A DNA stretch of 55,206 nt, from contig JAKAOO010000001.1 in assembly GCA_021812165.1 (NCBI GenBank), forward strand, positions 6,045 through 61,250, given 5' to 3'. The position numbers and the translations under genes were made by a program. The DNA is from Pseudomonadota bacterium. Lineage in GTDB: Bacteria > Pseudomonadota > Alphaproteobacteria > ATCC43930 > CGMCC-115725. Below the pieces are notes generated by a model. That model worked only from the letters and a program-made list of their open reading frames with translations, ran no database searches and was not told the DNA's origin. The first letter of the stretch is position 1. Each line of letters starts with the position of its first letter. This document shows, one piece after another, positions 1-55,206 of this stretch.

Positions 1-2
1 GC

Positions 3-371
3 ACGGTCGAAGCCTATAATGAAGGCGCCGCGAAGGGAGAGGATCCGGCGTTCGGCCGCGGCGGCAATGCCTATCAGCGCTACGTCGGCGACAGCGATCA
101 GAAGCCCAACCCCTGCGTCGCGCCGATCGAGACCCCGCCCTTTTACGCGGTCGCGCTTTATCCGGGCGATCTCGGCACTTCCGCCGGGCTTCAAACCGAC
201 GCCGCGGCGCGCGTTCTCGGCGCGGGCGGCACGCCGATCCGCCGCCTCTACGCCTGCGGCAACGATATGAGTTCGCTGATGCGCGGCGCCTATCCGGGCC
301 CGGGCATCACCTTGGGTCCCGCGCTCACTTTCGGCTATCTCGCCGCGCGCGACATCGCTTCCACCGGATAA
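3..371 (+). CDS. FAD-dependent oxidoreductase, C-terminal 122 codons (5' end outside window; KstD/fumarate-reductase-flavoprotein-like)
   Basis: Frame 3 is open from the window edge to TAA at 369-371. The translation ends ...RRLYACGNDMSSLMRGAYPGPGITLGPALTFGYLAARDIASTG, typical of the C-terminal FAD-contact segment of this flavoprotein class. It is absent from the ORF track because it has no start in the window. Confidence 0.6.
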   Translation, partial: TVEAYNEGAAKGEDPAFGRGGNAYQRYVGDSDQKPNPCVAPIETPPFYAVALYPGDLGTSAGLQTDAAARVLGAGGTPIRRLYACGNDMSSLMRGAYPGPGITLGPALTFGYLAARDIASTG

Positions 372-379
372 AGGCCCCC

Positions 380-745
380 TCACGCGTCGGCGGGAGGTGT
401 GGTGACGACGAGGAATACGAGGTCCTGGAGGCCCGAATTGTAGATCGCGTGCTCGACGCCGGGGGGAATATGGATGACGTCGTGGCGGCGCACCACGCGC
501 CGCTCGCCGTCGAGCTCCATCAGGCCTTCGCCTTCGAGCACATGATAGATCTGCTCCTGCACCTTGTGGCGGTGCGGCGCGACATGGCCTTTGGGCTGAT
601 AGGATGAGATCCGGTAATCGAGGCGCTCGCTTTTCGCGGTCTTGGGATTGATGAGCATCTTCGAATGCGCGTCATAGTGCTCGGGCGGCGTCTCCCAGAG
701 GATTTCGGCGATGTTGCGGATGCTGGCTGCGTTGCGTTCATACAT
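380..745 (-). CDS. cupin domain protein
   Basis: 121 aa. Cupin motifs are present: HRHKVQEQIYHVLEGEG...HIPPGVEHAIYN. Confidence 0.75.
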   Translation of the reverse strand: MYERNAASIRNIAEILWETPPEHYDAHSKMLINPKTAKSERLDYRISSYQPKGHVAPHRHKVQEQIYHVLEGEGLMELDGERRVVRRHDVIHIPPGVEHAIYNSGLQDLVFLVVTTPPADA

Positions 746-843
746 GGGGGCTTTCTCCGGGTCTGTTTGCGGGCAGGCGCCGCAAACGAATATGATAGAT
801 TGCGACCGGTCAACGGGCGACCGGCGAAGAGGGGAAAGGCGTC

Positions 844-2604
844 ATGGCAAAGAGTGCGGAGCTTGAGGCGCGTACCGAAATGCGCGACGGCATGCGGATC
901 ACCTGGAACGAGCCCATAAGGGTGGATGACGGCTTGGTCCTGCGCGCGGATGTCTATCGCCCCGTCGAGGAAGGCCGCTACCCCGTCATCCTCACTTACG
1001 GAATTTACGGGAAGGGACTCTCCTACCAGGAGGGCTACCCGCACCAATGGGAGAAGATGGTGGCCGACCACCCCGAGATCCTCATCGGCTCGACCAACAA
1101 ATACCAGAACTGGGAGGTGACCGATCCCGAGCGCTGGGTGCCGCACGGCTATGCGGTGGTCCGCGTCGATTCGCGCGGCGCCGGCTGTTCGCCGGGCTTT
1201 ATGGATCCTAATTCGGAGCGCGAGATCGCGGATCTATTCGCGTGCATCGAGTGGGCCGGCACGCGGCCGTGGTCCAACGGCAAAGTCGGCATGCTCGGCA
1301 TTTCCTATTACGCCAGCAATCAATGGCGCGCCGCCGCGAGGCACCCGCCGCACCTTGCCGCCATCATCCCATGGGAAGGGCAAAACGACCGCTATCGCGA
1401 CAGCGGATACCACGGCGGCATCCTCTGCGAGTTCCAAAAGCTTTGGGCGAAACATCAGGTGCGGAACGTTCAATACGGGCTCGGCGAGAGGGCGCGGAAA
1501 AGCCCGAATACCGGCGAAGGGATCGCCGGGCCGGTGACGCTTTCGGACGAGGAGCTCGCCCGAAACCGCGTCGACGCCTTCGAGGATCTCAAAAAGCACC
1601 CGCTCGACGACGCCTGGCACCGCACGCACTCCGCCGATCTTGCGAAGGTCGAGGTGCCGCTTCTCACCTGCGCCAACTGGGGCGGGCAGGGCATTCACCC
1701 GCGCGGCAACTTCAACGGCTTTACGGAAACCGCGTCGAAAGAGAAATGGCTCGAGGTCCACGGCGACTCGCATTGGTCGCTCTTCTCATCGGGCTACGGC
1801 GTCTCGCTCCAAAAGCGCTTTTTCGATCACTTTCTGAAGGGCGCGGACAACGGCTGGGAAAAGACCCCGCCCATCACCCTCAATATCCGCCATCCGGGCG
1901 AGAAATTCGTTCCGAGATACGAAAACGAGTGGCCGCTCGGCCGCACCCGTTGGACGAAATTCCATCTCGACCCAGGCGCAATGTCGCTCGGCCCGCAGCC
2001 TGTCGCGCGCGCCGGCAGGATCGAGTACGACGCCTTGGGCGAGGGCTTGACGTTCAGGATGGCGCCGATGGAGCGCGCGACCGAGATCACGGGGCCGCTT
2101 GCGGCGCGCCTCTTCATTTCGTCTTCGACAGAGGATGCCGACCTCTTTCTCATCGTTCGCGTGTTCGATCCCGAGGGCCAAGAACTCACCTTCATGGGCT
2201 CGACCGATCCCAACACCCCGATCGCCAACGGTTGGCTTCGCGCTTCGCACCGCCGGCTCGACCCGGAGCGAAGCAGGCCCTATCGGCCCTATCACCCCCA
2301 TGACCGGGTCGAGCCTTTGACCCCGGGAGAGATCTACGAGTGCGAGGTCGAAATCCTCCCGACCTCGATCGTGGTCCCCGCCGGTTGGCGGGTGGCGCTC
2401 AGCGTGCGCGGCAAGGACTACGAGTACACGGGGCCGCTCTCGGAGTTCGGCAAAAGGTTCCACTATGCGACGCGCGGCACGGGCGGCATGACCCACAACG
2501 ATCCCGAGAACCGGCCGCCGCAGGTTTTCGGCGGAAAGGTGACGCTCCACGCGGGCGGCCCGCACGACTCATACCTGCTCGTGCCGATCATCCCGGGAAA
2601 GTGA
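844..2604 (+). CDS. CocE/NonD family hydrolase (X-Pro dipeptidyl-peptidase S15-like)
   Basis: 586 aa. N-terminal LRADVYRP...YPVILTYGIYGKG, VDSRGAGCSPG, nucleophile elbow GISYYA, and the C-terminal beta-jelly-roll region typical of the family. Confidence 0.85.
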   Translation: MAKSAELEARTEMRDGMRITWNEPIRVDDGLVLRADVYRPVEEGRYPVILTYGIYGKGLSYQEGYPHQWEKMVADHPEILIGSTNKYQNWEVTDPERWVPHGYAVVRVDSRGAGCSPGFMDPNSEREIADLFACIEWAGTRPWSNGKVGMLGISYYASNQWRAAARHPPHLAAIIPWEGQNDRYRDSGYHGGILCEFQKLWAKHQVRNVQYGLGERARKSPNTGEGIAGPVTLSDEELARNRVDAFEDLKKHPLDDAWHRTHSADLAKVEVPLLTCANWGGQGIHPRGNFNGFTETASKEKWLEVHGDSHWSLFSSGYGVSLQKRFFDHFLKGADNGWEKTPPITLNIRHPGEKFVPRYENEWPLGRTRWTKFHLDPGAMSLGPQPVARAGRIEYDALGEGLTFRMAPMERATEITGPLAARLFISSSTEDADLFLIVRVFDPEGQELTFMGSTDPNTPIANGWLRASHRRLDPERSRPYRPYHPHDRVEPLTPGEIYECEVEILPTSIVVPAGWRVALSVRGKDYEYTGPLSEFGKRFHYATRGTGGMTHNDPENRPPQVFGGKVTLHAGGPHDSYLLVPIIPGK

Positions 2605-2637
2605 GCGCATGAGGCTTGTTGGTCTTCTCGGGCGGCG

Positions 2638-3072
2638 TTACGGATCGAGGGGAGGCTGCGGGCGATGCTTCTGCCGCCACGCCCGCACGAAAGTGGCCGG
2701 GGCTGCGATCGGGATGCCTCGGAACGGGTTGAGCGCGAGAAGATCGCCGTCCCCGGAAACGATCACATCGGCACGGCCGTTGACGGCCAGCTCCAGAAAT
2801 TTGTCGTCCTTCGGATCACGACAAGAAACGATGCGCTCGCCGACCGCAACCAGCTCGGCGGCCGCCATCAACCGAGCGAGCCAATCCCGGAACGACGGGG
2901 GGATCAACGGCGCAAGACGCGGGCGCGCAAGCGTGACGAACAGCTCCCGCTCAGTCATCGTCGATTTGAGAAGAGTGCCGCTCTCCAACACGATGCGAAC
3001 GGCGAGACCCGGAAGCGATCTCTCCTTCAGCGCCGCGCTGATGAGGACATTCGTGTCGACGACTGCCCTCAT
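2638..3072 (-). CDS. PIN-domain toxin (PIN_3-type TA toxin component)
   Basis: 144 aa starting MRAVVDTNVLISAAL, with later acidic residues (SGDGDLL). It shares a 4-nt overlap with the upstream small ORF. Confidence 0.8.
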   Translation of the reverse strand: MRAVVDTNVLISAALKERSLPGLAVRIVLESGTLLKSTMTERELFVTLARPRLAPLIPPSFRDWLARLMAAAELVAVGERIVSCRDPKDDKFLELAVNGRADVIVSGDGDLLALNPFRGIPIAAPATFVRAWRQKHRPQPPLDP

Positions 3073-3299
3073 CCGAGAAGCGGTTGCGCTTGCGTGCGGG
3101 CTTCCTCGATGATCCGGTCGATATCCTCATCGCTCAGCCCGGCAGCGATTACGCGCGCGCGCGCTTCCCGTCGGCCGGGGATCAATTCGCGAGGCTCGAT
3201 CGTAACGGTGACGCGGTCTTGCGGATCGAAGCCCCGGCGGATCAACTCTCGCGCAACCTTCTCCACTGTGGTTTCGATCACTTCGCTTTGGGACGGCAT
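3069..3299 (-). CDS. putative cognate antitoxin (small acidic protein)
   Basis: 76 aa from the ATG at 3299, preceded by GAGGAG. Its stop overlaps the PIN start (ATGA at 3069-3072). No recognisable RHH/AbrB motif, so the call rests on position only. Confidence 0.5.
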   Translation of the reverse strand: MPSQSEVIETTVEKVARELIRRGFDPQDRVTVTIEPRELIPGRREARARVIAAGLSDEDIDRIIEEARTQAQPLLG

Positions 3300-3428
3300 G
3301 GTGTTCGCTCCTCTGCCGCAGAATCTAGGCGGGCCCCGGCGCAGCGTCAAACTTGCCGGACGTCCGGGTGTATCTCAGTGTGCACCGCGCCCTCTTCGGG
3401 GGGATCACAGCGCCGATAAGGGGAGCGG

Positions 3429-4454
3429 ATGAGAGACCCACGGCCCACAATGCGGGCGCTCATCTGCCGAGAATGGGGTAGCGTCGATGGGCTGGAGCTT
3501 GGCGAAACGCCCGTTCCCGAGCCCGCCCCGAGCGAGGTGCTGATCCGCGTCAAGGCGACCGCGGTCAACTACGCCGACTCGGTCATGGTGGCGGGCCGCT
3601 ACCAGACGAAGCCGGCGCTGCCGTTCAGCCCCGGCCTGGAGACGGCGGGCGTGGTGGCGGCGTGCGGCCCGGATGCGGGCGGCTTCAAGCCGGGCGACCG
3701 GGTGATGGCGATCCTCGCCTATGGCGGGTTCGCCGAATTCGCGGTGGCTTCGGCCAAGGAGACTTGGCTCATTCCCGAGGGCATGAGCTTTGCCGAGGCG
3801 GGTGCGTTTCCCATCGCCTACCTTTCGAGCCATGCGGCGATCCGCTGGCAAGGGCGCCTCGAAGCGGGCGAAACCATGCTCGTTCTCGGCGCGGCGGGCG
3901 GCGTCGGCCTCGCCGCGGTGGAGATCGGCAAAGCCTTGGGCGCGCGCGTCATCGCCGCCGCCGGCACGACCGAGAAGCTGGCGGTGGCGCTCGCCCATGG
4001 GGCGGACGCGGGGATCGAGTATTCGCGGGAAAAGCTGGGCGAGCGGGTATTGGCGTTGACCGAAGGCAAAGGAGCCGATCTTTGCTTCGATCCGGTAGGC
4101 GGCGCGCTCTTCGACGCCGCGCTCTCCTCGCTCGGATGGGGAGGGCGCATCCTCCTCATGGGCTTCGTCGGCGGGGTGCCGCAGATACCGGCGAACCGGC
4201 TGCTCGTCAAACACCGCGCGGCGCTCGGCTCGTCGCTGCGCTATTTCCGCTGGTATGCGCCGGAGAAACTCAGGAAGTCGGCGGAGGAATTGTTGCGCTG
4301 GTACGGCGAGGGGAGCCTCAAGCCTCTCATCACCCATCGCCTGCCGTTGGAGCGGGGCGTCGAAGCGATCCGCCTTCTGACCGACCGCAAGGCGCACGGC
4401 AAGGTCGTCGTCGAGTTGGACGGTGTCCCGAGCTCGTCGAAGGAGCCTTCGTGA
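3429..4454 (+). CDS. NADPH:quinone oxidoreductase / zinc-type alcohol dehydrogenase family
   Basis: 341 aa. Motifs: EVLIRVKATAVNYAD, Rossmann GETMLVLGAAGGVGLAAVEIGKALGARV, and C-terminal HGKVVV. AAGGGGAG lies upstream of the ATG at 3429. An alternative start is at 3450. Confidence 0.85.
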   Translation: MRDPRPTMRALICREWGSVDGLELGETPVPEPAPSEVLIRVKATAVNYADSVMVAGRYQTKPALPFSPGLETAGVVAACGPDAGGFKPGDRVMAILAYGGFAEFAVASAKETWLIPEGMSFAEAGAFPIAYLSSHAAIRWQGRLEAGETMLVLGAAGGVGLAAVEIGKALGARVIAAAGTTEKLAVALAHGADAGIEYSREKLGERVLALTEGKGADLCFDPVGGALFDAALSSLGWGGRILLMGFVGGVPQIPANRLLVKHRAALGSSLRYFRWYAPEKLRKSAEELLRWYGEGSLKPLITHRLPLERGVEAIRLLTDRKAHGKVVVELDGVPSSSKEPS

Positions 4455-5209
4455 TGGAGATCCGCCTTTCCCACCATGGCCGGCACGTCGCCATCATCAC
4501 CATCGACAACGAGCGGCACCTCAACGCGATGACGCGTCAGATGTTCTTCGAACTCGGGCGCCTTTGGGACGCGCTGGAGCGCGACGATTGCCGCGCGATT
4601 ATTTTGACGGGCGCCGGCTCGCGCGCGTTCAGCGTCGGCGCCGACATGAGGGGCGACCTTTCCGCCGACTCGGAGACGGCGCGCATGGTCAACCACGCGC
4701 TCCTCAAAAACGACCCCTATTCGAAGCCGATCATCGCCGCCCTCAATGGCGACTGCATTGGCGGCGGCCTCGAGCTGATGCTCTCGACCGACATCCGCGC
4801 CGCCGTGCCGAGCGCGCGTTTTGGCCTCCCCGAAGTCAAATGGTCGATCTATCCGTTCGGCGGCTCGACCATCAAGCTCGTGCAGCAGATCGGCCACGTG
4901 CACGCCATGGACCTGCTTCTGACGGCGCGCTTGATCCGTGCCGAGGAGGCGCTGCGATTGGGCCTCGTCAACCGTCTGGCGGCGCCGGACGAGCTCCTGG
5001 GCTGGGCGATCGAGACCGCGGAGAGGATCGCCGCGAACAGCCCCTCGGCGGTGCAGGCGGTGAAGCGCCAGGTGAGCGCCACGATTGCCGATCACGGCCG
5101 CGCCCGCGAGGCTTTGGAGCAGGAACTCGGCGACGCGGTCAGAAAAAGCCCGCACTTTGCCGAAGGCGTCGCGGCGTTTCGCGAGAAGCGCGCGCCGCGC
5201 TACGAGTGA
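4454..5209 (+). CDS. enoyl-CoA hydratase/isomerase (crotonase) family
   Basis: Starts MEIRLSHHGRHVAIITIDNERHLNAM. Crotonase oxyanion segments are present: GAGSRAFSVGADM, and NGDCIGGGLELMLSTDIR. TGATG overlap with the upstream stop. AAGGAG lies 8 nt upstream. Confidence 0.85.
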   Translation: MEIRLSHHGRHVAIITIDNERHLNAMTRQMFFELGRLWDALERDDCRAIILTGAGSRAFSVGADMRGDLSADSETARMVNHALLKNDPYSKPIIAALNGDCIGGGLELMLSTDIRAAVPSARFGLPEVKWSIYPFGGSTIKLVQQIGHVHAMDLLLTARLIRAEEALRLGLVNRLAAPDELLGWAIETAERIAANSPSAVQAVKRQVSATIADHGRAREALEQELGDAVRKSPHFAEGVAAFREKRAPRYE

Positions 5210-5239: not shown

Positions 5240-7093
5240 TCACCCGGGAGCCGCGGCGTCTTGGGGAGCGATGACACTCTCCGAGAAGGGCGGGCGCAGG
5301 AGAGCCTCGCAATCCCGAGCCAGCATCAGATTGCCGAGGAAGAGGACGTCCATCCGCGTGCGCAAGAAACAATCGAGCGCCTCTTCAGGGCGACAGACTA
5401 CCGGCTCGTTTTCATTGAACGAGGTGTTGAGCACCATCGGCACACCGGTCAGATCGCGGAAAGCGCCGATGAGGCGGTGGTAGAGCGGATTGGCGTCGCG
5501 GGTGACGGTTTGCAGGCGGCCGGAACCGTCGACATGGGTGACGGCCGGGATAAGGGTCCGCTTTTCTTCGCGGATCTGGAAGACCTGCATCATAAAGGGC
5601 ACCGCGTCGTCTTCCTCGAACCATTCCGCGGCCGCCTCGGCGAGCACCGAGGGAGCAAAGGGGCGAAAGGACTCGCGCCGTTTGATCTTGGCGTTGAGGA
5701 CCCTTTTCATATCGGCCCGTCGCGGATCGCAGAGGATCGAGCGGTTGCCGAGTGCTCTCGGGCCCCACTCCATGCGGCCCTGGAACCAGCCGACGACCTT
5801 GCCTTCGGCGATGGCTTCGGCGGCCGTTCGGCAAAGCTCACGCTCGGTTTCGATCCCGGTGAGGACGCAGCCCGAAGCGTCGATTTCTCCGCGCTGCGCG
5901 GCGATGAGGGTCGCAATCTCGGAAGGGCCAAACCCCGGGCCCCAGAACGCGTGGTCCATGACAAAAGACCGCGCGCCGCCCTGCCGGTGCCAAAGAGAGT
6001 AGGCGGCGCCGATAGCGCCTCCGGCGTCGCCTGCCGCCGGCTGCACGTAAACGCGGCGAAACGGCGTCATCCGCCGGATCTTGCCGTTGGCGACGGAATT
6101 CATCGCGCAACCGCCGGCAAGCGCGATGTCGGTGAGGCCGAGGCGCCGGTGCACGGCGCCGAGGAGATGAAAGAACGCCTCTTCGTACATCGCCTGGAGC
6201 GAGCGGGCGATGTCGCGGTGCCGCGCTTCGAGCGGGGCTTCCGGCCTGCGGCGCGGTCCCAAAAGCACTTCGAGCGCGGGCGAAAAAAGATCTCCGAAGG
6301 AGGGAGAGCCGCCGTTCCAGGAAAAGGCGATGCGCTCTCGATGATGCCGAAAATAGGCAAGATCGAGCGTAAAGGCGCCGTCGGCTCCGAGCCTCACGAT
6401 CCGGCGCATGGCGTCCAAATGGGACGGCGTACCATAAGGGGCGAGACCCATCACCTTGTATTCGTCGCCGTAATGGGAAAACCCGAGATACTGGGTCAGA
6501 GCCTGATAGAAGAGGCCGAGCGAATGCGGGAAATAGACGCGCCCCTCCATGTCGATGCGACTGCCATGGCCCCGCCCCCAAGCGGCGCTTGCGAAATCGC
6601 CGAAACCATCGACCGATACCACGGCGGCTTCCGCAAAGGGCGAGACGTGGAAGGCCGAGGAAAGGTGGGAGAGGTGATGCTCGACATGATGAAAGGCGCC
6701 GCGGAAGGGTTCGCCTGGAAACGCCTGGCGGAGAAGAGCGGGGATCGCTTCGCGCTTTTGCCGATGTTGCAGCCGTCCGCGCAGAAGAGATAGACCGGAC
6801 GGATGCGCGAGAAGATAGGCAAGGCGCCGCAATCGGTGAGCGCGGCTATCCTGATTGACTGCGACATGGTCGACGTCGCTGAGGCGCACCCCTGCTTCCT
6901 CGAAGCAATACCCGATGGCCCGCGAAGGAAACCCCGCCCAGTGCTTGATCCGACGAAACCGTTCCTCCTCGGCCGCCGCAACGAGCCGTCCATCGCGGAT
7001 GATTGCGGCCGCGCTGTCGCTATGAAAGGCGTTGATGCCGAGAATGATCATGGGTCTCGCCATGCGTGGTGTTGCCAGCACGGCCGAGCTCAT
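5240..7093 (-). CDS. carbamoyltransferase (NodU/CmcH family)
   Basis: 617 aa. ILGINAFHSDSAAAIIRDGRLVAAAEEERFRRIKH N-terminus and conserved C-terminal LNTSFNENEPVV. Confidence 0.9.
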   Translation of the reverse strand: MSSAVLATPRMARPMIILGINAFHSDSAAAIIRDGRLVAAAEEERFRRIKHWAGFPSRAIGYCFEEAGVRLSDVDHVAVNQDSRAHRLRRLAYLLAHPSGLSLLRGRLQHRQKREAIPALLRQAFPGEPFRGAFHHVEHHLSHLSSAFHVSPFAEAAVVSVDGFGDFASAAWGRGHGSRIDMEGRVYFPHSLGLFYQALTQYLGFSHYGDEYKVMGLAPYGTPSHLDAMRRIVRLGADGAFTLDLAYFRHHRERIAFSWNGGSPSFGDLFSPALEVLLGPRRRPEAPLEARHRDIARSLQAMYEEAFFHLLGAVHRRLGLTDIALAGGCAMNSVANGKIRRMTPFRRVYVQPAAGDAGGAIGAAYSLWHRQGGARSFVMDHAFWGPGFGPSEIATLIAAQRGEIDASGCVLTGIETERELCRTAAEAIAEGKVVGWFQGRMEWGPRALGNRSILCDPRRADMKRVLNAKIKRRESFRPFAPSVLAEAAAEWFEEDDAVPFMMQVFQIREEKRTLIPAVTHVDGSGRLQTVTRDANPLYHRLIGAFRDLTGVPMVLNTSFNENEPVVCRPEEALDCFLRTRMDVLFLGNLMLARDCEALLRPPFSESVIAPQDAAAPG

Positions 7094-7310
7094 GCCGGCT
7101 CGGATGGTTGTTTCGAGCGAACGGGTATCCCAAAGGGAGACGGATTTTCGGCCTCAGGCGGCCGGCGCGCGACGGCAATCAGTGACTTCGCAAAGGGATC
7201 AATCCGCCCCACCCGAAAAAATCGGATCGCGACGAAACCGCCCTCCCTCAGCAACGTGGCAAGCGCCCGCTGCGACCAAAACTTGATATGTCCATGGTCC
7301 CAAAACGGCT
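7090..7310 (-). pseudogene. class I SAM-dependent methyltransferase, 3' fragment only (5' part replaced by IS630 remnant)
   Basis: The last ~70 codons read ...WDHGHIKFWSQRALATLLREGGFVAIRFFRVG, a typical methyltransferase C-terminus. The stop overlaps the carbamoyltransferase start (ATGA at 7090-7093). Upstream of ~7310 the frame is antisense to an IS630 transposase fragment. Confidence 0.5.
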
Positions 7311-7626
7311 TTTGGTCAATGCCACCGCACCGATCTTCCTCATCGTCGATCGGCATCCGACCCATCGGGCGAAGTCGGTAGCGTGCTTCCTCGCCGGGCA
7401 AGCCGGCAAGCTGGCGCTGTTCTTCCTCCCGCCCTATTCGCCGGAATTGAACCCTGACGAGCTGGTGTGGAACGATCTCAAGACCCACAGCCTCGGACGC
7501 CGGGCCATCACTTCGCTGGCGCAGATACGGCAGATGGTGATCTCGCATCTCCGGCAGTTGCAGAAGATGCCTGGACTGGTGCGCAGCTTCTTCCTTGCGC
7601 CGACGACACGCTATGCGTGCACGTGA
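7288..7626 (+). mobile_element. IS630-family transposase, C-terminal fragment (remnant)
   Basis: IFLIVDRHPTHRAKSV...LFFLPPYSPELNPDELVWNDLK is the DDE C-terminal signature of IS630/Tc1-mariner-type transposases. No N-terminal DNA-binding or first-Asp region is present. An AT-rich tail follows at 7627-7660. Confidence 0.7.
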
Positions 7627-7662
7627 TTGCAACTATTATGGAACGGTTAATATTTTTTCGCA

Positions 7663-8715
7663 TTGAAGTCGCGAGCCCTGGCGAAAGGCGCGCTGAAGGT
7701 CATTGACGAGGCTTCCTATCTGCACGACAAACAGCAGGTCATCCTCGACCACGAGCTCACCTTGGCGTCCCGGCTCCGTGCTCTGGGGTTCTCGACCGGG
7801 GTCGCGTTCACTTGTCCGCAGGCAGACTCGGCGTCGAAAAACCCGACGGTCCATTTCTGGCGCCCGCTCGTCGACGCGGGGTTCCCGTTCGTGAAGGTGT
7901 CGCTGGTCACGGCTGGATTTGTCGCTATCGACGACCCGGAGCTCGCCAAGGTTCTCGGTGCCGAGTGGACCGAACTCCTAAAGGATCACCTTCGGCGTCG
8001 CCGGCCCTCCGATGGTTACCGTGCGGCAGATACAAATCTGCCGGCGCAGCCCGCGATAAGCATCGAAGCCCGATTCGGGGACAACGGCGCTCTCCAAGCC
8101 TATAATCCGACGTGGGCTCAGGCTCTGCCGGTTGTCGTCCCTCTCGACGACCTCGACGACACCGGACCGAAGGATCCTCTTGGTCCGGCGGTCTTGGCGG
8201 CCATCCACTGCTTCTATCTGGATGAGGCGGAGAGAATCCTGGCGAACCTCGCCAGACTGCCATTGAATCTACGCGCGCTTCTGACGACCGACACGCAGGA
8301 TAAGGCCGCCCGCATCGAGGCTTTTCTGGTCCGTTTCGGCCTTCGCGGAGAAGTGGTCGTCGCCCCGAACCGAGGCCGAAACCTGGCGCCGTTCCTCGTT
8401 GAAATCCCGCGTCGTCTCCGCAGAGAAGGGATCGTCCTCCACCTTCACACCAAGAAGTCGCCGCATGACGTCGGTCTGGCTGACTGGGCGCGCTTCGTGC
8501 GCCGGAACCTTGTTGGCTCACCAGAGATCGTGCGCTCGATTTTGCACTTGCTGGAGCAGCAGGAGATCGGCGTCGTCTATTCCGAGCATTTCGGTCCCGT
8601 CGAGGGTCTCAGGAACTGGGGCTTCGATTTTCTGCATGCGCGCCGCCTAATGAGGAGGCTCGGGGTAACATCGTCCGCGGACTTCCTGTTGGATTTCCCG
8701 ACCGGGTCGATGTTT
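7663..8715 (+). pseudogene. rhamnan-synthesis-F (RgpF)-type glycosyltransferase, part 1 (5'-truncated, interrupted at 8715/8716)
   Basis: IHCFYLDEAERILANL...APNRGRNLAPFL...LHLHTKKSPH...FPTGSMF matches RgpF-family motifs. The frame leaves the family sequence directly after GSMF, at an insertion. Confidence 0.7.
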
Positions 8716-8823
8716 AGGTCAAAGAGGCTTATCCCTGTGCGTCCGGGGCCGCAAAATGTTGTGGTGGGTGGGGTTGGTTTGTGATAGAACAAAGCACGAA
8801 CATAATCGGTTTTGGGTGACAGG

Positions 8824-8913
8824 ATGACCGACTTTCCACGCTCCCTGATCGAGTTCCAGAAGCGCTTCCCGGATGAGGCGGCCTGCGTCGAATATCTGTT
8901 CGCGGCGCGCTGA
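8824..8913 (+). pseudogene. IS1595-family transposase, first 29 codons only
   Basis: MTDFPRSLIEFQKRFPDEAACVEYLFAAR then stop. This is the conserved N-terminus of IS1595-type transposases, cut before the zinc-ribbon. Confidence 0.55.
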
Positions 8914-9185
8914 CTCTCGACGATCTCGATGTGCCTTTTATCAGCGCGTTCCTCGCTGATCTCGAGACGCAGCGCGGCGCCAGCGCCAGGACGCGCAACT
9001 TGCGCCTGACGGCCGTTCGCTCATTCTTCCGGTTCGCCTCCTTCGAGGAACCGGCGCATAGCGCCCTGATCCAGAGAGTCCTCGCGATACCGAGCAAGCG
9101 CCACGACAAGTCTCAGGTCCACTTCCTGACACGGCCCGAAATCGAGGCGATCTTCGCCGCTCCCGATCGCACGACATGGCTTTGA
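8910..9185 (+). pseudogene. tyrosine recombinase/integrase, N-terminal SAM-like domain fragment
   Basis: LTLDDLDVPFISAFLADLETQRGASARTRNLRLTAVRSFFRFA...VHFLTRPEIEAIFAAPDRTTW then stop. There is no catalytic domain. Confidence 0.6.
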
Positions 9186-51196: not shown

Positions 51197-51661
51197 ATGC
51201 GATTGCCGGTTCGGTCTTTGGACAATTGGAGGCGGCTCGGCCCTTACGAAAAGTTCGAACAGGCGGTGTATGGGCTCCTCATTCTCTTTATCGCGCTGAT
51301 GGTCGTTCACTCGCTGATATTTCTCGCCCTCAAACTGTTCGAGGATATTCTTGCCGCGATCACGTTCGGCGAGGCGGCCCTTCTGAAGGATGCGTTCGGC
51401 GCCATTCTGACGGTCGTCATTCTGCTCGAATTCAACCGCTCGATCCTTGCGGCGATGCGAGGAGGCGCGGGGCTGCTCGAACTGCGCATCGTCGTCATGA
51501 TCGTGATCATCGTCATCGCGCGAAAGCTCATTCTCTTCGACTACAGCGCGGCGAACCTCAAAAACGCACTCTTCTTGGGCGCCCTCATATTGGCGCTCGG
51601 CGCGCTCTATTGGCTCATCGGCAACGCAGAACGGCAGCGTTCCGAGGCGCCTCCCGATTGA
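51197..51661 (+). CDS. PsiE-like small membrane protein
   Basis: 154 aa with 4 predicted TM helices. ...ILTVVILLEFNRSI...VIIVIARKLI pattern resembles the PsiE family. Confidence 0.5.
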   Translation: MRLPVRSLDNWRRLGPYEKFEQAVYGLLILFIALMVVHSLIFLALKLFEDILAAITFGEAALLKDAFGAILTVVILLEFNRSILAAMRGGAGLLELRIVVMIVIIVIARKLILFDYSAANLKNALFLGALILALGALYWLIGNAERQRSEAPPD

Positions 51662-51682
51662 GACGCCCCCGATTGAGACGCC
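51653..51682. repeat. 15-bp tandem duplication (CCCGATTGAGACGCC x2) spanning the psiE-like stop codon
   Basis: Read directly at 51653-51667 and 51668-51682. Confidence 0.9.
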
Positions 51683-51685
51683 CCA

Positions 51686-51765
51686 TCAGCGGGCGGCGAA
51701 CTGGGTCTGGCCGAAGAGGTTTTCCCGCTGTTCGGCGCTCATCGGACCCCGCCGCTGGTGCTCGG
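51686..51765. repeat. 80-bp direct repeat, left copy (displaced duplicate of GST 3' end)
   Basis: The 70-nt core 51696-51765 is identical to 53767-53836. The outer 10 nt differ at 3 positions. Confidence 0.95.
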
Positions 51766-52281
51766 ATCATCGTCCAAGCCTAGATCGCGGAGCAACGCCA
51801 CGGCGCGTTCCATGCGGTCGCGCTCCGCTTTAGCACCCTTGCGCCGCACAAGCTCCTCTTCCCAATCGGCCACCCTCTCGACGGCCCTGAGCCAATCGAT
51901 TGTGGCAGCCAGTTCGAGTATTATCGTTGGCTCCGCTCGCATGCGCGCGATCGCAGAGGACGCAGCACCACGCTCCAAGCCTCCGAGCGGCCCTTGGGTG
52001 GAAATCACCGGACTCTCGAAGATGCTGTAAGGAACACCGTCGGACATGCGCCGTTCAATTCGTTCGCTTACCAATCCGAAGGCCGCCGCGTCCTCAACTG
52101 CTTCGGCAAGATCTGAAGAATACGGCCCGTAATGGTGGTATTCGTAGGAGAAGTCGCTGTTAAGCCCGAGCTGATCCAAGATGTAGAATAGCTTTTGCAA
52201 GCGCACGCGTCCGACGATCTGTCCTCCTGCACTAGACACGACCTGCGCCACGAGCTGGTCACCTTCCCTCTGCCCGCTCAT
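51739..52281 (-). CDS. small Panacea/DUF4065-like (SocA/YwgA-like) protein, partner of the HD protein
   Basis: 180 aa. GRVRLQKLFYILDQLG...YEYHHYGPYSSDL resembles the KLQKLLY...W.YGPV signature of DUF4065. ATGA overlap with the upstream HD gene. The last 9 codons lie inside the left direct repeat. Confidence 0.6.
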   Translation of the reverse strand: MSGQREGDQLVAQVVSSAGGQIVGRVRLQKLFYILDQLGLNSDFSYEYHHYGPYSSDLAEAVEDAAAFGLVSERIERRMSDGVPYSIFESPVISTQGPLGGLERGAASSAIARMRAEPTIILELAATIDWLRAVERVADWEEELVRRKGAKAERDRMERAVALLRDLGLDDDPSTSGGVR

Positions 52282-53618
52282 TTTCCATCCCTCGCTCGAT
52301 CGCGCTCCGCGGAGCTCGAAAAATAGAAGCGTGTAAAGGACCGTCCCTTGGGGGAGACCAAAGAACTGATCGCTGGCGATAGTTCAGTGATCTCGCGGAG
52401 CCCGTTGCTCGTTCGGATCATCAGCCGGTTCTGGGCTGCGGCATCATCAGCGCCGACCACCCCGTATATGCTGATCGTCGCCGTGTCCTTGAGAACCATG
52501 CGGCCCATCTCGCCAGCGTAGTCTCGTTCGATTCGTCGGATCGCCCTCCGCTGAATCTCGGCAGACTGGTCGTACACGCTTTCGATGTCGAGAGCCTTGA
52601 ATAGCCGTCGGCCCCACAGCCTCTCGGCCATCGCTACGATGTAGGCATCCCCTGCCCTCCGAAACCCTTCTACTGCGCCCCAGAGCACCGCGTCGTCGAG
52701 TGCCAGGTAGGCCGCAGCGTCCTCGCCCCTGGATCCGAAGAACCGCGCCAACGGATGCTTTGGGTCAAGGCCGGCTTCCTCGAATCGGCCTTTGGCAGCG
52801 GCGGCTGCCACGGCGCGCAGGAGGGCCGCGAACATCTGCTCAACGCCGCGGATTGTTTTGTGAAGGTAGACTTGCGTGTAGAGGTGAAACCGAGCCAGCA
52901 GAAACGCCTCGGCGGACTGGAGGGCTTTGGCATCGAGACAAAAGCTTCTACGCTGGACTCCGCGCCCGTCGCCGTCCGGATCGACGTCGATCGGCTCTAT
53001 CCGGAGGTTCTCCAGAAGCCAGTCAAAATCAATCGCCCCCGCGCCAGAACCCGTCATGATGCGGTCTCGCTGCAGATAATCGAGCCGGTCTGCGTCGAAG
53101 GAGCTACGAACGATCGCGTCGTAAATATCGGTCGGTGTTTCAGCCACGAGCACGTCCGCCACCTTGTCGGCGAGCCCTCGCCTATACTCCTCAAGCAAAG
53201 GCTGGATTTGTCCCTTGGGGTCCCGGATTATCTGGGCGCTCCAGGCTTCATGCCGCTTCTTTAGACCCTGTGACCGTTGGACTTGCTCGAACGCATGGCT
53301 GAAAGGACCGTGGCCGATGTCATGGAGGAGCGCGGCGAGGGTGGCTTCCTCGGCTCGGTCTTCATCGACCTCGCCCGCCTGCCTCTTGATGATCTCCACA
53401 AGCCTTCGCGCGGTCTCAAAGACGCCGATACAATGAGAAAGCCTTGTGTGCGTGGCGCCCGGGAAAACGAACTCACAAAAGCCCAATTGCTTGATTCGGC
53501 GGAGGCGCTGGAGCTCGGAGGTGTTCAGCAACTTCCACGCGATCTGGTCGAGAGGCTCCGCTTCTCGAAACACGATTAGCCCGTGAATGGGGTCGCGGAT
53601 ACGCTGGGTACGAGCCAT
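52278..53618 (-). CDS. SAMHD1-like HD-domain dNTP triphosphohydrolase
   Basis: 446 aa. IRDPIHGLIVF, ELQRLRRIKQLG, HTRLSHCIGV, LLHDIGHGPFSH and FDADRLDYLQRD form the complete H...HD...D metal site in SAMHD1/EF1143 order. Confidence 0.85.
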   Translation of the reverse strand: MARTQRIRDPIHGLIVFREAEPLDQIAWKLLNTSELQRLRRIKQLGFCEFVFPGATHTRLSHCIGVFETARRLVEIIKRQAGEVDEDRAEEATLAALLHDIGHGPFSHAFEQVQRSQGLKKRHEAWSAQIIRDPKGQIQPLLEEYRRGLADKVADVLVAETPTDIYDAIVRSSFDADRLDYLQRDRIMTGSGAGAIDFDWLLENLRIEPIDVDPDGDGRGVQRRSFCLDAKALQSAEAFLLARFHLYTQVYLHKTIRGVEQMFAALLRAVAAAAAKGRFEEAGLDPKHPLARFFGSRGEDAAAYLALDDAVLWGAVEGFRRAGDAYIVAMAERLWGRRLFKALDIESVYDQSAEIQRRAIRRIERDYAGEMGRMVLKDTATISIYGVVGADDAAAQNRLMIRTSNGLREITELSPAISSLVSPKGRSFTRFYFSSSAERDRARDGK

Positions 53619-53756
53619 ATCTGGAACATATCAGGAACGGGCGCAGGCGACAAGTAGCTTCGACGCGAATTCCGCGAAAATTTTTTGGGCTACCCGGGCT
53701 GCTTCGCGCGATCAAGGGCAGCGCAGGACTGCCGTGACGTGCCCACTCTCAGTGGG

Positions 53757-53836
53757 TCAACGCGCCGCGAACTGGGTCTGGCCGAAGAGGTTTTCCCGCT
53801 GTTCGGCGCTCATCGGACCCCGCCGCTGGTGCTCGG
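53757..53836. repeat. 80-bp direct repeat, right copy (functional 3' end of GST gene)
   Basis: See the left copy. This copy overlaps the last 26 codons plus the stop of the GST gene. Confidence 0.95.
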
Positions 53837-54452
53837 CGAGAACGGCGACGCCCCGCACGACCGCCGGGCGCGCCGCGATCCTGTCATGCCAGCCCTTGAC
53901 CGCGGGGTAATCCGCGAGATCGATCCCGCGCCGCTCGGGATTGCGCACCCACGGGAAGGTGGCGATATCGGCGATCGAATATTCCTCGCCCGCGAGATAC
54001 GGCGCTTCTTCGAGACGATGATCGAGAACGCGGTGAAGACGCTTCACCTCGTTCGTATAGCGCGCGATCGCGTAGGGGATCTTCTCGACGGCATAATTGG
54101 CGAAGTGGTTGTACTGGCCGAACATCGGTCCCACGCCGCCCATCTGAAACATCAGCCATTGCAAAGAGAGATAACGCGCCGCCGGATCTTTCGGGATGAG
54201 CTTTCCCGTCTTTTCCGCGAGATAGACGAGGATCGCGCCCGATTCGAAGAGATTGAAACGCTTGCCGCCCGGCCCCTCGGGATCGACGATGGCGGGGATG
54301 CGGTGATTGGGGTTGATGGCGAGAAATTCCGGCTTGAACTGATCGCCGGCGCCGATGTTGATGGGGATTACCCTGTAAGGAAGCCCGATCTCCTCGAGCA
54401 TGATATGCACTTTGTGCCCGTTGGGGGTCGGCCAGGTCCAGGCTTCGATCAT
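53757..54452 (-). CDS. glutathione S-transferase (Nu-class YfcG/YghU-like)
   Basis: 231 aa from the ATG at 54452. MIEAWTWPTPNGHKVHIMLEEIGLPY...INPNHRIPAIVD...LFESGAILVYLAEK...QWLMFQMGGVGPMFGQ. Confidence 0.85.
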   Translation of the reverse strand: MIEAWTWPTPNGHKVHIMLEEIGLPYRVIPINIGAGDQFKPEFLAINPNHRIPAIVDPEGPGGKRFNLFESGAILVYLAEKTGKLIPKDPAARYLSLQWLMFQMGGVGPMFGQYNHFANYAVEKIPYAIARYTNEVKRLHRVLDHRLEEAPYLAGEEYSIADIATFPWVRNPERRGIDLADYPAVKGWHDRIAARPAVVRGVAVLAEHQRRGPMSAEQRENLFGQTQFAAR

Positions 54453-54622: not shown

Positions 54623-54904
54623 ATGCCGCTCCAGGTCAACATCGCCGAAGCGAAGGCCAAGCTGTCGTTTCTGCTGGATCGCGCTCTGGCGGGGGAAGAG
54701 GTTGTGATTGCGCGTGCCGGCAAGCCCGTGGCACGCCTCGTGCCGATGGCGAGTCGCGCGAAGCGCAAGCGCGGTGCTTGGCGCGGCTGGAAAATCGAGG
54801 CCGAGGCGTTGCTTGAGCCGATGGCTTCCATAGATCTGGACGCGGCAGAAGGCCGGCACACGGACGAGTGGGGCATTACCAAGCCACGCACGAGCGAGCC
54901 GTGA
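54623..54904 (+). CDS. Phd/YefM-type antitoxin
   Basis: MPLQVNIAEAKAKLSFLLDRALAGEEVVIARAGKPVARLVP. The stop overlaps the following PIN gene (GTGA). Confidence 0.75.
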   Translation: MPLQVNIAEAKAKLSFLLDRALAGEEVVIARAGKPVARLVPMASRAKRKRGAWRGWKIEAEALLEPMASIDLDAAEGRHTDEWGITKPRTSEP

Positions 54905-55206
54905 AGCTCCTCCTCGACACCCATGCGCTGCTGTGGTGGCTCGTCGACGACCCGCTTTTGTCTCACGCGGCGGAGGCGGCGATCGCGGACGGCGCGAACG
55001 ACGTGTTCGTGAGCGCCTGTGTTGGGTATGAAATCGCCTATAAGCAGCGTCCAGCAGGCTGCGGAAAAATGCTGGAACGTCGTCATTCCGGGGCGCGGTC
55101 GCTCCGCGGGCTATCCGCCTTGCGCGGCCTTCGCGGCGAACCTCTGACGGCCGTGCCCGGCACGTCGCCGGCGGACGCGAGCCCGGAATCCATAAACACA
55201 GACCCG
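54901..55206 (+). pseudogene. vapC: VapC-type PIN toxin, apparently disrupted after ~58 codons by a MITE-like repeat (frame runs to window end)
   Basis: VKLLLDTHALLWWLVDDPLLSHAAEAAIADGANDVFVSACVGYEIAYK is PIN-like. From ~55078 the sequence is the repeat element, and no further PIN motifs occur. Confidence 0.55.
55078..55203. repeat. MITE/REP-like element, inverted long copy of the 19528-19583 unit
   Basis: Termini are CGTCGTCATTCCGGGGCGCGGTCGC ... GCGAGCCCGGAATCCATAAACACAG. These are the reverse complement of the ends of 19528-19583, with about 75 extra internal nt. Confidence 0.8.

Follow-up and report, generated by a model that had tools for sequence, protein, structure and literature searches.

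Here, we analysed a 55,206-nt stretch of DNA from an alphaproteobacterium (Pseudomonadota bacterium, assembly GCA_021812165.1, contig JAKAOO010000001.1, forward-strand positions 6,045 to 61,250; the whole stretch is called the window below) and found in it a 1991-bp islet, in which a gene for an HD-domain protein and a gene for a small protein of the YwgA family follow an alphaproteobacterial LexA (SOS) box and are bracketed by two copies of the end of a host gene (Table 1). We read the islet as a YwfO/YwgA-type operon of two genes that is complete in itself and moves horizontally, and in which LexA would control the expression of a deoxynucleoside triphosphate (dNTP) hydrolase together with a YwgA partner that restrains it. 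To this explanation as a whole we give a probability of about 0.45. A preliminary description of the same DNA, made from the letters alone, had reported a SAMHD1-like and a Panacea/DUF4065-like gene between direct repeats; it contained neither the LexA box nor the origin of the repeat as a copied host gene end.

The list of open reading frames (ORFs) confirms the two minus-strand genes of that description, which encode 446 and 180 amino acids and share a 4-nt ATGA overlap at 52278-52281. The HD protein matches the Pfam families HD (E 1.7e-13) and HD_assoc_2 (E 1.8e-12) and aligns with PDB entry 2o6i, the dNTPase EF1143 of Enterococcus faecalis (E 1.3e-44, residues 7-434 vs 40-445), while its match to SAMHD1 is weaker (E ~1e-17). 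The metal ligands of the H...HD...D site are intact, with RLSH, LLHDIGHGPFSH and DADRLDYLQRD aligned with the EF1143 residues, and the N-terminal regulatory-site segments RDPxH (here RDPIHG) and QRLRRIKQLG are conserved; the SAMHD1-type motifs noticed earlier are indeed there, within an alignment to EF1143 that runs the length of the protein. With both the metal ligands and the homology over the whole body, the protein belongs to the EF1143/SAMHD1 type (COG1078), and we predict that it is a dNTP triphosphohydrolase. Enzymes of the EF1143 type are general dNTPases. EF1143 and SAMHD1 share with the islet protein the full-length homology, the active site and the regulatory-site segments, but both were studied alone, whereas here a YwgA partner follows and, in the Alphaproteobacteria, a LexA box precedes.

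Known dNTP-degrading defence systems are less close. The PADLOC dGTPase model (HD residues 56-112) and the NCBIfam anti-phage dGTPase model cover no more than the HD motif and score clearly under their cut-offs. PADLOC gave only domain-level matches at the locus that had been put forward as a candidate defence module. In Clover, a dNTPase needs a partner for its restraint (the dGTPase CloA and the nucleotidyltransferase CloB). The islet resembles Clover and the dGTPase systems in its predicted dNTP-degrading effector and, for Clover, in the pairing with a restraining gene. It differs in that its HD protein falls into the EF1143 clade and not with Dgt, and in that its small partner, which has no nucleotidyltransferase domain, is predicted to be a binding protein and not a signal-making enzyme.

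Many homologues of this small partner are named 'YwgA' by JGI. Pfam gave no match to the protein, and membership in the Panacea family, to which it had been likened, is rejected: 70 family members, 30 of them close relatives (E up to 10) and 40 diverse ones (E up to 1), showed no match to PF13274 (SocA_Panacea). What remains of the likeness is a link through the C-terminal domain of DarG. The C-terminal part of DarG was matched in PADLOC (E 6e-10, model positions 166-302 of 329) and in NCBIfam (E 6e-7, 184-309 of 338; 28.9 bits vs a cut-off of 250). An AlphaFold2 model of the small protein (predicted local distance difference test, pLDDT, of 91) had 7yk3_B as its top and sole significant neighbour among the PDB structures in Foldseek (E 6.7e-5, probability 1.0, template modelling score 0.61), and a broader family profile found the same chain by sequence (E 0.0028). 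We assign a fold like that of the DarG C-terminal domain to YwgA, an assignment that appears to be new. This DarG domain (7YK3) binds and inhibits the toxin DarT, as reported in a 2026 paper, in which DUF4065 proteins were found to be homologous to the same domain at a marginal E of 1e-3; any relation of YwgA to Panacea/DUF4065 would be a remote one by way of DarG. The likeness to DarTG lies in the sequence and the fold shared with the toxin-blocking domain, whereas the islet has neither a macrodomain nor an adjacent DarT, the neighbour being an HD phosphohydrolase. The N-terminal half of YwgA is acidic (isoelectric point 4.6) and, by comparison of predicted structures, winged-helix-like. At 50% identity and E <= 1e-3 the family falls into 2,329 clusters, almost all of which represent stand-alone proteins with a length of 165-180 amino acids. 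Matches of the family in PHROGs were weak and to entries of unknown function, and a literature search on the function of ywgA found nothing.

Is the pairing of HD and YwgA genes a common arrangement? We collected 80 genome loci, mostly of Alphaproteobacteria, and 80 metagenome loci, all found through YwgA. Of the 80 genome loci, 76 have the HD gene immediately before ywgA in the same orientation, or 76 of 78 evaluable ones, as two of the other four are at a contig edge; the metagenome loci with room for it have it in 69 of 73 cases. Overall, HD immediately precedes YwgA in about 145 of 151 evaluable loci, a co-occurrence that the preliminary description had made a condition for a functional pair. 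When loci were chosen by their HD gene instead, a YwgA homologue was found downstream in three of three, overlapping by 4 nt each time, and this overlap recurs across the inspected loci. The islet structure of the window is also present on a second contig, and copies of the pair occur in metagenome-assembled genomes (MAGs) labelled Actinobacteria, Bacteroidota, Desulfobacteraceae and Comamonadaceae. The phage collection held no match to the pair and IMG/VR a single contig; the single 'plasmid' match turned out to be a Bacillus-type chromosomal yw region.

A suggestion, offered earlier with doubt, that ywfO neighbours ywgA in Bacillus subtilis was right. In Priestia megaterium, the yw region reads pta, rsfA, DUF1450, HD, a 169-aa protein, tautomerase, YwhD and PBP1A. 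The HD protein encoded there is 30% identical to that of the window (E 2e-49), and the 169-aa protein aligns with the YwgA profile in hhalign (probability 97.8%, E 9.7e-13), which identifies the small islet protein as a homologue of the Bacillaceae YwgA encoded directly after ywfO. Both proteins and the gene order are shared with the Bacillus/Priestia pair. The Bacillaceae genes, however, hold a fixed core position, are separated by a 23-nt gap in place of the 4-nt overlap and lack an SOS box, while the genes described here lie in a mobile islet.

The claim that the pairing is undescribed holds only in part. Among the predicted pairs in Dataset S1 of Kurata 2022 is T34, marked 'notest', in which an HD protein (CDD YdhJ) precedes a Panacea antitoxin; an HD(YdhJ)-Panacea pair was already on record, although only as a prediction. 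PanAT T34 resembles the islet in that a COG1078-type HD protein precedes a small antitoxin-like protein in the order toxin, antitoxin, and in that one of the genomes listed for it has a -4 overlap. It differs in that YwgA has no Pfam Panacea match and in that the listed T34 cases are thermophilic Clostridia.

Upstream of the HD gene lies a putative operator. In 75 of 129 related loci, the coding strand has an exact GTTC-N7-GTTC some 15-40 nt ahead of the point where the alignment of the HD protein begins, and 8 more have a box with one mismatch; the consensus over the loci is tGTTCwwkaTwTGTTCy. At a background of 0.0017 per 180-nt window, chance alone would give about 0.2 loci. The SOS (LexA) box published for Caulobacter crescentus is GTTCN7GTTC, and the rare further occurrences of this motif in the loci include, as an internal control, positions ahead of uvrA (in L043 and L055) and of uvrB (in L067), within a few kb of the pair. 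With an exact box in its promoter region, the operon carries the operator of the alphaproteobacterial LexA regulon, and the pair is apparently under DNA-damage (SOS) control, with LexA as the predicted binding protein. A literature search for a link of LexA to the HD family found nothing, and a LexA box on the HD-YwgA pair appears to be new. The window holds a second GTTC-N7-GTTC (8787-8801) without an adjacent recognisable SOS gene, which is consistent with chance.

A scan for consensus sigma-70 promoters and terminators found nothing. By eye, a -35 and a -10 element may be read in the upstream region within the islet, of which two hairpins (53717-53733 and 53742-53756) abut the GST stop. Since the box overlaps the putative -10 and almost no leader is left, occlusion of the promoter of a leaderless or very short-leader mRNA is suggested. 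As the box lies inside the islet, the cassette would therefore carry its own damage-responsive switch. Toxin-antitoxin (TA) systems under SOS control are established, e.g. HigBA of Caulobacter. The islet shares with higBA, with yafNO of E. coli and with imuA-imuB-dnaE2 a LexA operator, here a predicted one, on a small accessory operon, and differs from all three in the chemistry of the effector. The imuAB-dnaE2 cassette is mobile as well.

The islet is an insertion, because the same GST-psiE-mutS site is empty in two relatives (L087 and L088), whose GST orthologues are 90% and 84% identical to the GST of the window. Both have the convergent psiE about 20 nt beyond GST, and then mutS, and the empty sites align with the window base by base; the preliminary description had proposed to look for an empty site at exactly this place. 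The GC content of the islet is 60.3%, compared with a window mean of 65.1% (standard deviation 1.9%, 2-kb windows), and the islet is the lowest 2-kb window; a low GC content had been noticed before, and the contrast is real but milder than the earlier hand counts. At third codon positions, GC is 67-71% in the HD/YwgA pair vs 75-80% in mutS, psiE and GST. Between the repeat copies there is no integrase or transposase, as had been observed, and by the ORF list HD and the YwgA-like gene are the sole credible genes; the remaining ORFs there are antisense shadows of the sort common in high-GC DNA. The islet has no recombinase gene of the kind that marks integrase-mediated genomic islands, and no transfer RNA gene was found at the insertion site.

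The direct repeats around the 1991 bp, 80 nt long and identical at 77 positions, are as previously described. Here, we found that they are two copies of the 3' end of GST: one is the working end of the gene and the other an orphan joined to the ancestral spacer (Table 1). The three mismatches are synonymous and affect only third positions in the final three sense codons, and both copies read Ala-Ala-Arg-stop. The small ORF ends within the left copy, which supplies its last 9 codons (27 nt) and its stop, and close homologues of the small protein end just before this part.

We sought further gene-end duplications by comparing one flank of a locus with the other, the identities of the host segments being a reading of their translations. 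In three more loci (L010, L053 and L074), a direct duplication of a host gene end flanks the two-gene HD-YwgA cassette as in the window. Third codon positions account for 41 of the 59 mismatches in the four cases together (3/3, 7/15, 7/10 and 24/31), and among the 31 differences in L074 we counted by eye about 3 amino-acid changes. Because the mismatches are mostly at third positions and cause few amino-acid changes in L074, a duplication in place followed by decay of the orphan copy is disfavoured as the origin of the repeats. The pattern fits a duplicated end that evolved within a working gene of another lineage and arrived with the cassette. The likely route of arrival would be a Campbell-type integration of circular DNA by a single homologous crossover; alternatively, a recombinase could have acted in trans, and either route would leave GST intact. 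Such an insertion without a recombinase and with a duplicated host gene end appears to be new. Prophage e14 in icd is an integrative element that carries a replacement end of its target gene. With e14-type elements the islet shares the direct repeat that is the end of the target gene, mostly synonymous differences and an intact host gene, but it has no integrase, and the four related cassettes sit in four different target genes. The flanking repeats in L119 and L147 are dispersed palindromic elements resembling repetitive extragenic palindromes and not insertion duplications. Taken together, the empty sites, the low GC content, the varied neighbourhoods, the spread across phyla and the gene-end duplications at four targets support mobility.

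The fate of the HD gene was followed in 136 loci with room for it. The best HD match spans essentially the whole query in 112, and about 6 have a long, apparently intact HD ORF with a diverged C-terminus. In about 14 loci the gene is frameshifted or truncated (6 of these are nanopore MAGs with possible sequencing errors), and in 4 it is absent. Every locus with a broken or missing HD gene has a YwgA match, and where inspected (L099, L083 and L093) the ywgA gene is intact; with the nanopore assemblies excluded, about 12 loci have lost HD and kept YwgA. Decay in this direction would be expected if the HD protein were harmful, but it is no more than suggestive, as the loci were collected through YwgA. 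Together with the coupled gene order and the antitoxin-like fold of YwgA, it is indirect evidence for a putative type II TA module.

Based on these results, we propose the following working of the module. In the unstressed cell, LexA would sit on the GTTC-N7-GTTC operator, which overlaps the promoter, and keep the operon off. Upon DNA damage, activated RecA would cause the self-cleavage of LexA and both genes would be expressed, translationally coupled through the ATGA overlap. The HD protein, as an EF1143/SAMHD1-type dNTP triphosphohydrolase, would lower the dNTP pools, and the acidic YwgA, with the fold of the DarG C-terminal domain that binds DarT and mimics single-stranded DNA, would bind the HD protein and restrain or tune it in the manner of an antitoxin. 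The net effect would be a damage-inducible brake on DNA synthesis, by which infecting phages and prophages under induction might likewise be deprived of dNTPs.

Several observations weigh against this mobile, LexA-controlled operon of a dNTPase and its inhibitor. No match to the box was found in 46 of the 129 loci, and YwgA itself, with its winged-helix-like N-terminal half, could use the motif as its own operator instead. The Bacillaceae pair lies in a fixed region of the core genome without an SOS box, where a Cheo-type box is absent upstream of the Priestia pair, and has a housekeeping look; many alphaproteobacterial copies likewise lie among housekeeping genes. The tally of HD losses is biased, as the loci were found through YwgA, and all four duplication-flanked islets come from metagenome assemblies. 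Moreover, co-induction of both genes from a single LexA-controlled promoter leaves the release of the inhibitor unexplained.

A non-toxic role in repair or housekeeping is a serious rival, although we consider it somewhat unlikely. The HD protein would trim or sanitise the dNTP pool during repair or act at stalled forks like SAMHD1, and YwgA would be a stoichiometric accessory or regulatory subunit or a winged-helix transcription factor and not an antitoxin. The core-genome position of ywfO-ywgA in the Bacillaceae and the general dNTPase activity of EF1143-type enzymes agree with this, as do the LexA box, which puts the operon in the SOS regulon with uvrA and uvrB, and the copies beside mutS, priA, radA and uvrA in several genomes; the winged-helix-like N-terminal half of YwgA points the same way. 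A housekeeping gene pair would, however, hardly be expected to be patchy in the Alphaproteobacteria, with empty sites in close relatives, to lose HD repeatedly while YwgA is kept, or to occur in some genomes with TA islands, insertion sequence (IS) elements and defence genes. As for the winged-helix-like half of YwgA, this N-terminal domain is acidic and ill-suited to DNA binding, and the best structural match of the protein is an inhibitor domain.

Could the pair be a dedicated anti-phage system acting by abortive infection? YwgA would then hold the dNTPase inactive until a phage cue appears, and dNTP depletion would block replication. dGTPase and Clover are precedents for defence by dNTPases, YwgA is related to antitoxin domains, and the pair is mobile and patchily distributed; one copy is preceded by a gene for an MmeI-like type IIG enzyme and followed by HNH and TIR-STAND genes, and another (L053) comes after a large ORF read, by eye only, as methyltransferase-like. 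Against it, the PADLOC and NCBIfam defence models match no more of the protein than its HD motif, most sampled neighbourhoods are not defence islands, the Bacillaceae keep the pair in the core genome, no phage trigger is known, and the conserved signal is a DNA-damage operator that is not obviously tied to phages. We regard this explanation as unlikely. A chance adjacency of functionally unlinked genes, or an assembly artefact, for which the metagenomic origin of the four duplication-flanked islets might speak, is highly improbable and effectively refuted by the conservation of the pair in about 150 loci of several phyla, the same structure on the second contig, a 77/80 repeat match impossible by chance and empty sites that align base by base.

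The preferred reading, a LexA-controlled operon of a dNTPase and its inhibitor, bears on questions beyond this islet. Animals (SAMHD1) and bacteria (dGTPase, Clover) both have dNTP-depleting enzymes as antiviral effectors, and how such dNTPases are kept harmless is an active question, to which this family would offer another solution, i.e. a small antitoxin-related protein that is predicted to bind the enzyme. The conserved LexA box ties nucleotide depletion to the SOS response and provides a cheap experimental handle, namely induction by DNA damage. A route by which modules of two genes and no recombinase colonise chromosomes is suggested by the duplicated gene ends at four different targets. 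We further speculate, as quite an unlikely extension, that the LexA-controlled dNTPase and its inhibitor form a damage-triggered replication brake and an antiviral module at once, which spreads without a recombinase of its own by means of the functional target-gene end that it carries, through homologous insertion. If so, the combination of a damage brake with an antiviral role would echo the double role of SAMHD1 in virus restriction and DNA repair, and the carried gene end would give very small islets a means of movement that has not been recognised before.

A check of gene neighbourhoods for enrichment in defence islands had also been suggested at the outset; the sampled neighbourhoods are mixed, with one clear defence island and with housekeeping genes and TA islands elsewhere. 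In several genomes, the pair lies near genes of DNA repair and replication (mutS, uvrA, radA, priA). Close homologues are accompanied by small genes of unknown function and by NYN and Nudix genes, one of them by a transposase and one by a terminase gene; one pair lies between the atp operon and priA, and another beside mutS and a malic enzyme gene. In L182/L183 (1-8392), the pair is part of a TA cluster (Phd, YafQ/ParE, RelB, ParD, HTH) beside an IS element, and its box, GTTCCTGATATGTTC, is identical to that of the window and ends about 5-6 nt before the ATG. The clear defence-island context is that of L184/L185 (1-8380), where the pair overlaps the end of a gene for a 1339-aa MmeI/Eco57I-like type IIG restriction-modification protein and, in an operon-like arrangement, precedes genes for an HNH endonuclease and a TIR-STAND (nSTAND1) protein; a LexA box is absent from this copy.

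Table 1. Features of the islet, its host site and related loci. Coordinates refer to the window unless a locus is named.
Feature	Position	Strand	Remarks
Inserted islet, 1991 bp	51766-53756		LexA box and promoter region, HD gene, YwgA-like gene
LexA (SOS) box GTTCCTGATATGTTC, alphaproteobacterial type	53624-53638	-	exact GTTC-N7-GTTC, 5 nt before HD ATG
Islet-borne upstream region	53619-53756	-	putative -35 TTGTCG / -10 TATGTT, overlapping LexA box
HD ORF, 446 aa	52278-53618	-	ORF list, Pfam and PDB matches
Small YwgA-family ORF, 180 aa	51739-52281	-	predicted binding partner/inhibitor of HD enzyme
Left repeat copy	51686-51765	-	orphan duplicate of GST 3' end, joined to ancestral GST-psiE spacer
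Right repeat copy	53757-53836	-	working GST 3' end, last 26 codons and stop
GST-like, glutathione-dependent disulfide oxidoreductase	53757-54452	-	host gene, insertion target; Pfam GST_N, GST_C; NCBIfam PRK13972
psiE	51197-51661	+	host gene on opposite islet side; Pfam PsiE E 3.7e-20; gene call from L001
15-nt tandem duplication (CCCGATTGAGACGCC x2), perfect	51653-51682		spans psiE stop, 3 nt from left repeat copy
Phd/YefM antitoxin	54623-54901	+	upstream of GST
PIN (VapC) toxin	54898-55206	+	upstream of GST
L010 duplication, radA 5' end	6318-6517 / 8602-8801		200 nt, 93% identity
L053 duplication, 3' end of large methyltransferase-like ORF	6133-6335 / 8557-8759		203 nt, 95% identity
L074 duplication, ubiD 3' part	5916-6313 / 8715-9087		at least 398 nt, 91% identity
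L099, HD absent	1-5113		transposase genes in place
L083, HD frameshift	6662-8004		
L093, HD truncated	2791-3705		

The Phd/VapC pair beside the islet, also part of the preliminary description, is present upstream of GST. In the empty-site relatives L087 and L088, a Cupin_2 gene takes its place; the Phd/PIN pair therefore looks like a second, independent insertion by the same GST gene. A 25-nt tandem duplication lies inside the orphan ubiD copy of L074, and this as well as the small duplication in the window (CCCGATTGAGACGCC x2) may be scars of the insertion process. The sole match in an Rfam scan, to the animal microRNA family mir-598 inside psiE (51439-51508), is due to chance (28 bits vs a cut-off of 69). 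Elsewhere in the window, between 7100 and 10100, ORF fragments resembling transposases and IS elements were seen by eye.

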